DNA from: Amoebidium appalachense
Taxonomy: Eukaryota; Protista; Ichthyosporea
NCBI GenBank assembly: GCA_963693365.1
Contig: CAVNZM010000001.1
Location: 7,270,907 to 7,334,906, forward strand
DNA length: 64,000 nucleotides
Direction: 5' to 3'
Notes under the pieces: model-generated
What the model was told of the DNA's origin: nothing
Database searches by the model: none
The model's input: the letters and a program-made list of their open reading frames with translations, nothing else
Program-made: the position numbers and the translations under genes
Shown here: piece after piece, positions 27,477-30,400 of the stretch
Position numbering within the stretch: the first letter of the stretch is position 1
How the letters are laid out: every line of letters begins with the position of its first letter

Positions 27477-30400
27477 ATGGTAACGAAGAAACTGGGAACT
27501 GACGTGTGCGAGTTTGGTAGGCGTTGTTATTCAGTTGTGAAGGTATCCTGGTTCGGCATTACCCGCCTTCGAATTCCGAAAGAAAGAGAGAGGCGTCTGA
27601 GCGTTCCTTTTGCTTTCACATAACTAGCCTGGATAGGGTGCAGTAAAGGATTACTATGATACCAATCCACTTCGCAACGTTGACAAGTTCTTAAGCACCT
27701 GGTTTGACACCTTTGGGGCTTTGTGAAACAGGTTTGGGGAGGGGCGATTCTCTGGCAGAAAAAGCCCCCTCGGGAGTTAGCCATGCGGGCACACGTACGC
27801 ACACATGCGCGCGCGCACACACACACACACACACACGCACGCACACACACACACACACACACACACACACACACACACACACTACCGTCCCCCCCCCCCC
27901 CAAAAAAAACCCCTCACACCCCTATCCCCCCCCCCCCCCCCCCCCCCCCCCCCGTCCCTCAATCCAAACACACAGACATACACTACTCATTCGCTGTCTG
28001 TGGAGTCTCCAACCCCACCAACTTCCTCCGCCCCCTCATCCCTGCCACTACCTTTCCCTCCCTTAACCCCCCCAACCTCCTCCCCCCCTCCCCCTTCTTT
28101 TTCTTGCTTCTGCTTACTGCTGCAACTTTAACCCCCGGCCTTTCCTACTGCCCTTGCCTGCATAAGTAACCCTGCTCGTCTCTGATCAAGACGGGTGACC
28201 TACCCATGTTCAAACGAAACAGTATCTGAGTTGGGTTTCGTTAACGAGGTGAATAGGTCGAAACTCGGGTACTGTGGATGACGTGGGCCCCGCCTGAGGA
28301 TGGGCTCTGCTTATTATGCATACTCTCTATGTATGGTTTGCATTCTGCATCGTGTTATCCGTTGTTCTTGTGTACTTCGTACTTTATGACGCATTCAAAC
28401 CCCCTCCCCCTTCTCCCCCCCGCCCGCGCCCCCACCACCACCCCACCCCCATGCCCCCCTCCCCCTCTCCCCCCTTCCCCACACCCCTCCCATCCCCCCC
28501 GTTCCCCTAAAGACATCCTCCCTCCCTCCAACCCCCACTACCCAACACATACCCTCTTTCCATCCTCTTCCACCCCCTTCCACACATTTTCCCTCTTGCT
28601 CATACCCTTTCACCAAGCAGGCCCAGAAAGAAGAATTTGAGGCGGGCCAGAGGAGGGCAGAGACAGAAGCCAAGAGGCTGGAGGAGGGGCAAATAGTCAT
28701 GCAGGCAGAGAACAAAAAACTCACAAATATGGTCAGGGGACTACTAGCTGAGGCTGCAGGTATGGAAGTGAATATGGCGTGCCCCCAGGGGGGGGGGGAG
28801 GGGGAGGGGGGAGGGGTGGGGGAGGGGGTGGGGTGGGGGAAAGGGTTGGGGGGGGAGGGGGGGGGGGGGTGGTTGAATTGATGATGTTGGGTTTGGTTCC
28901 GTCTATGTAGCCAAAGAAATGGTGGGCCTGTAATGGGTTGTGTTGTGTTGGAGTTGGGTGTGGTTTGGTGTATGTCAGTGTTATTTGGCACGGGTTGGGT
29001 CAGAGAGAGGGAAGGGGGTAAGGGGGAAGGGTGGGGAAAGGGGGGAGGGGGGGGGGGGGGATGATGGGGGGGGATAGGGGAGGGGAGGTTGGGGGAGGAG
29101 GAGGTGGTGACGGTCAGGTGACATGATAGGACATTGCTTTTCACACCCATTTCAAGTATCCAGCCACCGAACACAACCAAACTTCCTCTACTAAGCCTCA
29201 CACTCCATGTTTGTTGATGTTCATTTTTTTTGCGCCGTCTCCTTATGATTCGTACACGCACAAAAACACTCTCACTCCCCCCTCCTGCCCCTTCCCCCCC
29301 CCCCCCCCCCCCATCACCCTATCTCTCCTTTCTTGCCCCCCTCCCCCTCTTGCAGAGGGTCCTCTCTCTCTCTCCCTCCCCCTCTTCCCCCCCCCCCCTC
29401 CTTCCCCTCTTCTCTCCAACCCCCCCCCCCCCCCATCCCCCTCCCCCCCCCCCCCCCCCCACACACACACACACATCCCCCCTCCTCCGCCCCCTCACAC
29501 ACGCCCATCCCCCCTCCCCCCCCCCCCCTTTAGATATTTAAAACTTTGAAAAACTTTGCCCTCACAGCGGGTAGGGCACGAACCCGTCTTGAGCATATGC
29601 GCAGCAAGCACCTTGAAGACCGCCTGGAGCAGACCACGTCCCAGCGCAACTACTACCGCTCAAGGAACGACAGCCTGATGGCTCAGGTCACACGCCTACT
29701 CAATGGCCGCCCACTAAAGGTGCCCCTCGACATCCCCCCTCCCCCCTCCCCCTTCCCCCTTCTCCCTCCCCCCCCATTGGGTACATATGGGCATGTGTGT
29801 GTGTGGGTGTAATCCACGTGTGTGCGCCTATGTGTTTTGCTCCTTACATCCCTCCACCTCCCCCCCCCCCCCCCCCCCCCCCCACCACCACCGCCGCCGC
29901 CCTCTCTCTCCACCTCGCACGTAATGCACACTGCCCCTGGCGGCACCTCGCACCCACCGACATCCACCCCCCCTGACTGGCGTGGCGTTTTTTTTTTTTT
30001 TTTTTTTTTTTTTTTTTTTTTTTTTTTTTTTTTTTTTTTTGTGTGTAAATGACAGTATGTCACTTTTCGTCTACCGCTGCTACTTGATATTTTCCTAATT
30101 GCCATGCTGTTACATTTATCGCCAAGACTAAAAGCCCCCAGTGCCGATTTGTTGAGTATCATGCACATTAAATATACTTTGGCAGGGGAAATAAAGGGCT
30201 AAGGGGGGGGTTCTGATATCTAAAAGGGTTTTTATGATACACACGCGAATGGTTTTGACTCGAGAGATTAGCGTGTGACCTTGAAGATCACCTTAGTATT
30301 AGTTTCCGACATATGGTGTCCACGTGTGTGTATTCGTGTGTGTCTGTGTGTGCACCTGTGAATGGGTGGGTGGGTGGGTGGGTGGGTGACTATGACACCC

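Follow-up and report, generated by a model that had tools for sequence, protein, structure and literature searches.

The window analysed here, a 64-kb (64,000-nt) stretch of Amoebidium appalachense DNA, contains exons that match transcript-derived EukProt proteins with 100% identity over most of the aligned stretches, one of these proteins being labelled Amoebidium parasiticum. Profile searches with a sequence-only model identified eight pieces of one dispersed element in this window (each with E ≤4e-4; the reversed window, used as a control, gave one match with E 2.9), which together comprise 1571 bases, or 2.5% of the window, and have a common 3' end and variable 5' ends. The first-pass annotation had described three copies, A, B and C, all of which are present and alignable over their full length, but the window total is eight pieces, and contigs from sequencing runs showed that the element reaches further upstream than the starts given there. 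Two other repeats were observed in the window: a dispersed one about 900 nt long (14934-15823 and 44199-45163, 93% identical), each copy lying directly downstream of a gene end or start and giving no Pfam match in the frames tested, and an inverted pair of 184 nt (33070-33253 and 35468-35649, 92% identical), possibly the ends of a DNA transposon, which flanks about 2.2 kb containing piece H of the element. In addition, two paralogous small ORFs (11148-11678 and 14488-14961) have signal-peptide-like starts and several cysteines, and no clear Pfam family was found for them.

Copy B (31240..31692, plus strand) represents a full unit of 453 nt and is the only copy in the window in which all helices of our model and all core letters are intact. 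In front of it lies a 44-nt duplicate of the 3' end of the unit (31196..31239, plus strand), arranged head-to-tail like a pseudo-LTR and sharing 95% identity with 31649-31692 at a spacing of 453. The head-to-tail junction recurs in other copies, as seen from contig joints, which reach back about 442 nt, and from loose ends. Copy A (28122..28404, plus strand; profile search) has its 5' end at or upstream of 28122, and the consensus of contig loose ends matches 28122-28151, upstream of where the copy had been thought to start. Copies A and B represent two subfamilies, A-type and B-type, in which the core letters are kept and the linkers are strongly different. Copy C (61398..61659, plus strand) is decayed, with a broken G10.1-C11.1 pair and an eroded closing stem, and copy D (42004..42209, minus strand) is 5'-truncated and decayed. 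Piece G (42262..42364, minus strand) consists of the 3' part only and stands in tandem with D, the two being separated by a C-run and a CA repeat, piece E (7953..8083, plus strand) is a decayed 3' half that is probably intronic, and piece H (33786..33852, minus strand; E 4e-4) is a 3' end only. A first blast match at 42417-42490 was rejected as a copy of the element, since it is an exon of the CNNM gene. A short C-run junction leading into GGCC is shared by the sequence upstream of A (28122-28140) and the 3' end of E (8074-8087), which hints at an A-type unit of about 270 nt.

The copies adjoin C-runs and CA repeats, and for seven of the eight pieces the end lies within or at the edge of a C-run or C-rich tract, piece E lying in a run of five C only. 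Copy B is intronic, between an exon at 30974-31088 and an exon at 32562 that are joined by two contigs, and D and G lie in sense orientation in an intron of the CNNM gene on the minus strand, as determined from its transcript-derived protein. The frames of the flanking exons place copy C between two exons, which have no clear Pfam match and presumably encode a protein-phosphatase methylesterase. Copy A lies directly upstream of an in-frame exon; an upstream exon was looked for and not found. Thus, the proposal that all three original copies are intronic and sense holds for B, where a spliced contig and a transcript-derived protein agree, follows for C from exon frames, and is only probable for A. 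Sense orientation was observed at five independent loci. However, this bias is weak evidence, because the likely targets are equally strand-biased: 37 C-runs were sense and 15 antisense, and the corresponding numbers for CA repeats were 36 and 11 (about 70-75% sense). Orientation was therefore rejected as evidence, target asymmetry being sufficient to explain it.

In copy B, the element consists, from 5' to 3', of a closing stem, a hairpin (H1), the 5' strand of stem II starting from G10.1, a linking helix, block S, a variable linker, block G, the second strand of the linking helix, block C and the second strand of the closing stem, all on the plus strand. The 5' strand of the closing stem, P0 (31412..31423; 8 bp outer and 3 bp inner), pairs with 31559-31572, and H1 occupies 31425..31447. 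The 5' strand of stem II (31449..31454) pairs with 31511-31516, and the 5' strand of the helix linking stems I and II (31455..31462) pairs with 31537-31544. Block S (31476..31489) carries a strand of stem III, the predicted cleavage site 3' of 31485 (H17) and a strand of stem I (31486-31489), while block G (31511..31528) contains the 3' strand of stem II, GAAA (31517-31520) and the other strand of stem III. The 5' half of block C (31547..31557) provides the remaining strand of stem I and CUGAGGA (31551-31557), after which the chain continues into P0 and not into stem II. The hammerhead core letters (CUGAnGA, GAAA and UH, together with the C3-G8, A15.1-U16.1 and G10.1-C11.1 pairs) are present in A and B and decayed in C and D, and stems I, II and III adjoin the core in both A and B. 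Directly after A9 no pairs are available for stem II, the partner of which lies about 100 nt upstream. With each of the three outer linkers closed, block C is the only place left for the chain to enter. We infer that a second coaxial stack, formed by the closing stem and H1, could complete a four-way junction and would place A9 next to G10.1. An alternative core composed of the CUG before H1 and the UGA after H1 was rejected, as stem I fails in B.

Helices 1 to 4 of the first-pass annotation lie at the places it gave in A, B and C, and its helices 2 and 3 do cross; its closing stem is exact in B, contains one G-U pair and a terminal mismatch in A, and is largely lost in C. The fourth core helix, stem I, was absent from that description. 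In copy A it is broken by a private G at 28292, a position that is C in 86-99% of the depth. The hammerhead strings had correctly been read as standing in a non-canonical order, which we now recognise as the order of the SGC class with a split core. The fold maps onto an SGC-order hammerhead, and we consider it very probable that it derives from a hammerhead; the suggestion of a new class of structured RNA is not needed.

Comparison of the copies supports these helices. In a four-row alignment, 93% of 144 cells paired and five of the 45 pairs changed on both sides, these five lying in five helices, a count that leans in favour of the structure because the structure was derived from the same rows. 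Specifically, stem I has A-U in B and G-C in A, stem II has C-G in B and U-A in A, the linking helix has A-U in B and U-G in A, stem III shows a two-sided change between A and B, and C-G of H1 becomes A-U in copy C. When partners were slid along the same alignment, 31-47% of cells paired and no two-sided changes appeared, and five of 500 letter shuffles reached five two-sided pairs, a proportion that is not to be read as a probability. Only three to four full sequences could be aligned. Within 28161-28315, 12 places varied at ≥5% of the contig depth on A, none of them among the 16 core letters, and in the contig depth on B the only core position varying at ≥5% was H17, which is C in copy B and U in >99% of the depth. 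Apart from 28292, common changes in the depth on A keep pairs or fall in linkers, the exceptions being a change at 28193 that breaks a helix (9% in one run) and, at 28292, the deletion of one base from the C-run (12% in one run). As most copies are 90-99% alike, this absence of variation is weak evidence.

We also scored the layout with a descriptor, composed after the copies had been seen and hence post hoc, in which copy B obtained 39 pairs. None of 30000 free shuffles reached 30 pairs, and when the core strings were held fixed, seven of 10000 shuffles reached 30 and none reached 39. Copies A and C fail the strict descriptor because of their own mutations. Generic patterns selected 43 and 94 viral loci and at least 120 metagenome loci, and a family-specific pattern selected no metagenome locus; among the matches listed for these 257 viral and metagenome loci (the metagenome part being at least 120) the best score was 27. 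Neither the split-core architecture nor a Penelope-like RT motif was found among the generic-pattern loci listed. Five of the viral loci (L013, L023, L025, L031 and L037) are canonical type II hammerheads. At another locus (L169:1995-2065), stem II of a hammerhead-like core forms a local hairpin that separates the cleavage block from GAAA, and CUGAUGA comes last; this is possibly another opening at A9/G10.1, and as a single example it may be due to chance.

In the Rfam check proposed in the first-pass annotation, the window gave no match at gathering score, and block G is supported by weak partial hammerhead matches with E 1.6 and 8.5; in the part shown of the window-wide low-threshold list, the matches were microRNA-family noise on simple repeats. 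Nested folding energies did not stand out (z from -0.8 to -1.5 for copies A, B and C), and the z-score does not choose a strand, since the core of B gave -2.4 on both. RNase P, SRP, SAM-I, glmS, C/D snoRNA, group I core and omega-RNA were rejected on topology, by comparison with general descriptions of these families.

The element is abundant in the sequencing runs. Contigs on 270 nt of copy A numbered 4788, 7064 and 6123 in three of four DNA runs and 2 in the fourth, and the B region had 15043 contig records in one run, although summed contig depth equals neither copy number nor expression level. Scaling eight pieces per 64 kb to the A. appalachense genome size of 202 Mb (PMC11244446) suggests approximately 25,000 copies genome-wide. 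In run X11, four contigs (163, 113, 138 and 158 nt) with 30-nt overlaps close a cycle of 452 nt, the strand of which is not readable, and the same run contains a spliced host exon; X11 and X13 are one sample, taken to be RNA by guess, no run being recorded as RNA. Such a cycle is compatible with a circle or a tandem transcript, but it can equally arise from tandem DNA, which is also seen in DNA run X2. In X15, a very small run, the whole B unit was covered with few differences and the host exon was absent.

Taken together, we favour the reading that the element is a non-autonomous, retrozyme-like relative of the Naiad/Chlamys type of Penelope-like retroelements, which carries a likely self-cleaving split-core hammerhead of SGC order and which a reverse transcriptase of that type likely inserts into C-runs and CA repeats, and we assign this reading a probability of about 0.55. 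The earlier idea of a ribozyme-bearing retroposon is supported, with cleavage as a prediction. Host read-through transcription of tandem copies would produce a multimeric RNA, in which stacking of the closing stem on H1 may bring A9 beside G10.1 even though they lie at opposite chain ends. Monomers of about 450 nt would then be freed by cleavage at the H17 sites of successive units and may be circularised by a host ligase; a circular template is conceivable to us, with the odds somewhat against it. A Penelope-like enzyme, which we regard as the probable partner, would nick a microsatellite, begin copying at one set position and terminate at differing ones, leaving truncated, unit-length and slightly-over-unit copies. 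No match to RT or GIY-YIG was found in the window ORFs scanned (90 ORFs and 14 further picks).

Several observations bear on catalysis, which we predict to occur after H17 and consider somewhat better than an even bet. Most copies carry GUU at the predicted cleavage position, a site that reacts more slowly and can base-pair with A14. At its junction the element contains U-U and G-U pairs, whereas Naiad_EuTe has perfect pairs there. Furthermore, in each of A, B and C a competing nested hairpin (-11 to -13 kcal/mol) sequesters CUGAGGA, and by summed stacks the nested fold (-91.5) equals or beats the ribozyme fold (-87.9); such a hairpin might act as an off-switch, or it might mean that cutting is unimportant. 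A 14-nt segment in the B-type 5' region (31308-31321) is 86% complementary to the closing-stem strand 31416-31429 and could also compete with the ribozyme fold. In the lizard Penelope-like element Poseidon, insertion occurred in vitro without hammerhead cleavage, and cleavage required protein (PMC11167929). Reverse transcription of Poseidon begins at fixed internal sites (PMC11167929), which fits the fixed 3' end of the element described here but at the same time weakens the need for a circle.

The explanation that competes most closely accepts the same element and ancestry and supposes that the fold has lost its cutting activity or needs protein for it, serving as an RNA handle for the reverse transcriptase with a linear tandem transcript as template. 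The family-wide GUU site, the imperfect junction and the competing hairpin speak for such a handle, as does the dispensability of cleavage in vitro for Poseidon (PMC11167929); that both subfamilies retain the full set of 16 core letters despite strongly differing linkers speaks against it, and we regard it as a serious minority possibility, at roughly one chance in four. A change of partner is less probable still: an active split-core hammerhead might be mobilised by a HERO-like (RLE) non-LTR element instead of a Penelope-like one, yet the (C)n/(CA)n targeting and the pseudo-LTR structure match Chlamys/Naiad (PMC8557442), and the split-core fold was read directly in Naiads, so that we consider this unlikely.

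More distant readings would dispense with the hammerhead altogether. If the element were an ordinary SINE-like repeat or a LINE tail with helices and hammerhead-like strings arising by coincidence, the lack of an Rfam match at gathering score and the weak folding z-scores would be as expected, but coincidence is opposed by the shuffle controls, by five helices with two-sided changes and by the recurrence of the layout in unrelated Naiad sequences, and no tRNA gene was found in the window; we judge this reading very improbable. The likeness to the J4/2-P2 end of HDV in the first-pass annotation would suggest an HDV-like ribozyme, but the J4/2-like string occurs in B only and the would-be catalytic C is not conserved: copies A and C have T at this position, only B has C, and 53-68% of the depth on A reads G; no P1/P3/L3 arrangement of the HDV nested double pseudoknot is readable in the element. 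Nor does the terminus of a DNA transposon (MITE) fit, as terminal inverted repeats are absent and the ends of the element are direct repeats. We give the HDV and DNA-transposon readings next to no weight.

If the split-core hammerhead of our preferred reading cleaves, the A9-G10.1 link, treated as unbreakable in the permutation literature, would be replaceable by a four-way junction, the rules for hammerhead searches would change, and engineers would gain a core with a new entry point. Cleavage would also account for the reported lack of hammerheads in Naiads, would bring ichthyosporeans into the range of non-LTR retrozymes and of the Naiad/Chlamys group, and would make the role of the hammerhead in Penelope-like transposition directly testable in a culturable host. 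The present locus adds a non-animal host, a non-autonomous unit and a C-run target. In its boldest form, which we advance tentatively and with the balance of probability against it, the element would be an active retrozyme outside animals, the tens of thousands of intronic copies of which release circular RNA of about 450 nt through a four-way-junction split-core hammerhead, a ribozyme of the kind believed to be missing from Naiad/Chlamys elements, and it would either predate animals or have crossed between freshwater arthropods and the protist living on them.

Compared with known ribozymes, the element most closely resembles the Type-SGC hammerhead (HRIMA-1 and variants; PMC10085705), with which it shares the S-G-C block order, the core letters, crossing stems and a helix that connects stems I and II at their distal ends. 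However, in the element the closing stem and hairpin break block C open at A9/G10.1, whereas the description in PMC10085705 assumes that block C cannot be interrupted, and the S-G linker is about 20 nt as compared to about 3 in Type-SGC hammerheads (PMC10085705). Our verdict is that the element would work like an SGC hammerhead but falls outside the type as defined. It also differs from hammerhead types I, II and III, as the S-G-C order with crossing stems is not a permutation of their nested three-way junction. In the pseudoknot hammerhead and pistol (PMC11300833), the stem II region is similarly rebuilt through a pseudoknot around an intact core, but A9 is directly linked to G10.1 and the connectivity is another one, and in the passages of Perreault et al. 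(PMC3088659) covered, the core insertions of hammerheads comprise only one or two bases. No published description of the split-core topology or of such an Amoebidium element was found in the full texts searched, which include a minority of subscription papers, and the text of the Amoebidium genome paper mentions neither Penelope nor ribozymes.

Among mobile elements, non-LTR retrozymes (PMC7229834; bioRxiv 10.64898/2026.07.22.740005) are likewise short, non-coding, tandem units of high copy number, there in tens of thousands, and are likely moved by Penelope-like elements (same two sources); circular RNA was demonstrated for the animal retrozymes (PMC7229834). They occur in animals and carry a canonical type I hammerhead per unit, which the element does not, and in Xenopus they are under-represented in introns (PMC7229834; bioRxiv 10.64898/2026.07.22.740005), in contrast to the intronic pieces described here. 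Naiad and Chlamys elements have (C)n/(CA)n targets, pseudo-LTRs and 5' truncation, include non-autonomous head-to-tail Chlamys elements, and are described as being without canonical hammerheads (PMC8557442). The element resembles them in its microsatellite targets, pseudo-LTR, head-to-tail copies, 5' truncation and very high copy number (PMC8557442), and differs in having no ORF and an ichthyosporean host, a group absent from the main text of PMC8557442. Its (C)n/(CA)n target is Chlamys-like, while the fold was read only in Naiads, which are mostly listed with (TA)n (PMC8557442); in the Chlamys passages of PMC8557442 covered, which include a minority of the Chlamys tails of File S6, no clear split-core fold was seen. 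Among the Naiad sequences read, which form part of the 54 Naiad records, the split-core layout with closing stem and hairpin at A9/G10.1 was recognised by eye near the 3' end of five consensus sequences (EuTe, Plae, Bfor and two octopus records; PMC8557442 File S5), the hosts being a crustacean, an acanthocephalan, a ctenophore and two octopuses. No sequence likeness between the element and these five tails was seen beyond the core letters, and the recurrence of the same layout in them is the strongest outside support for the fold.
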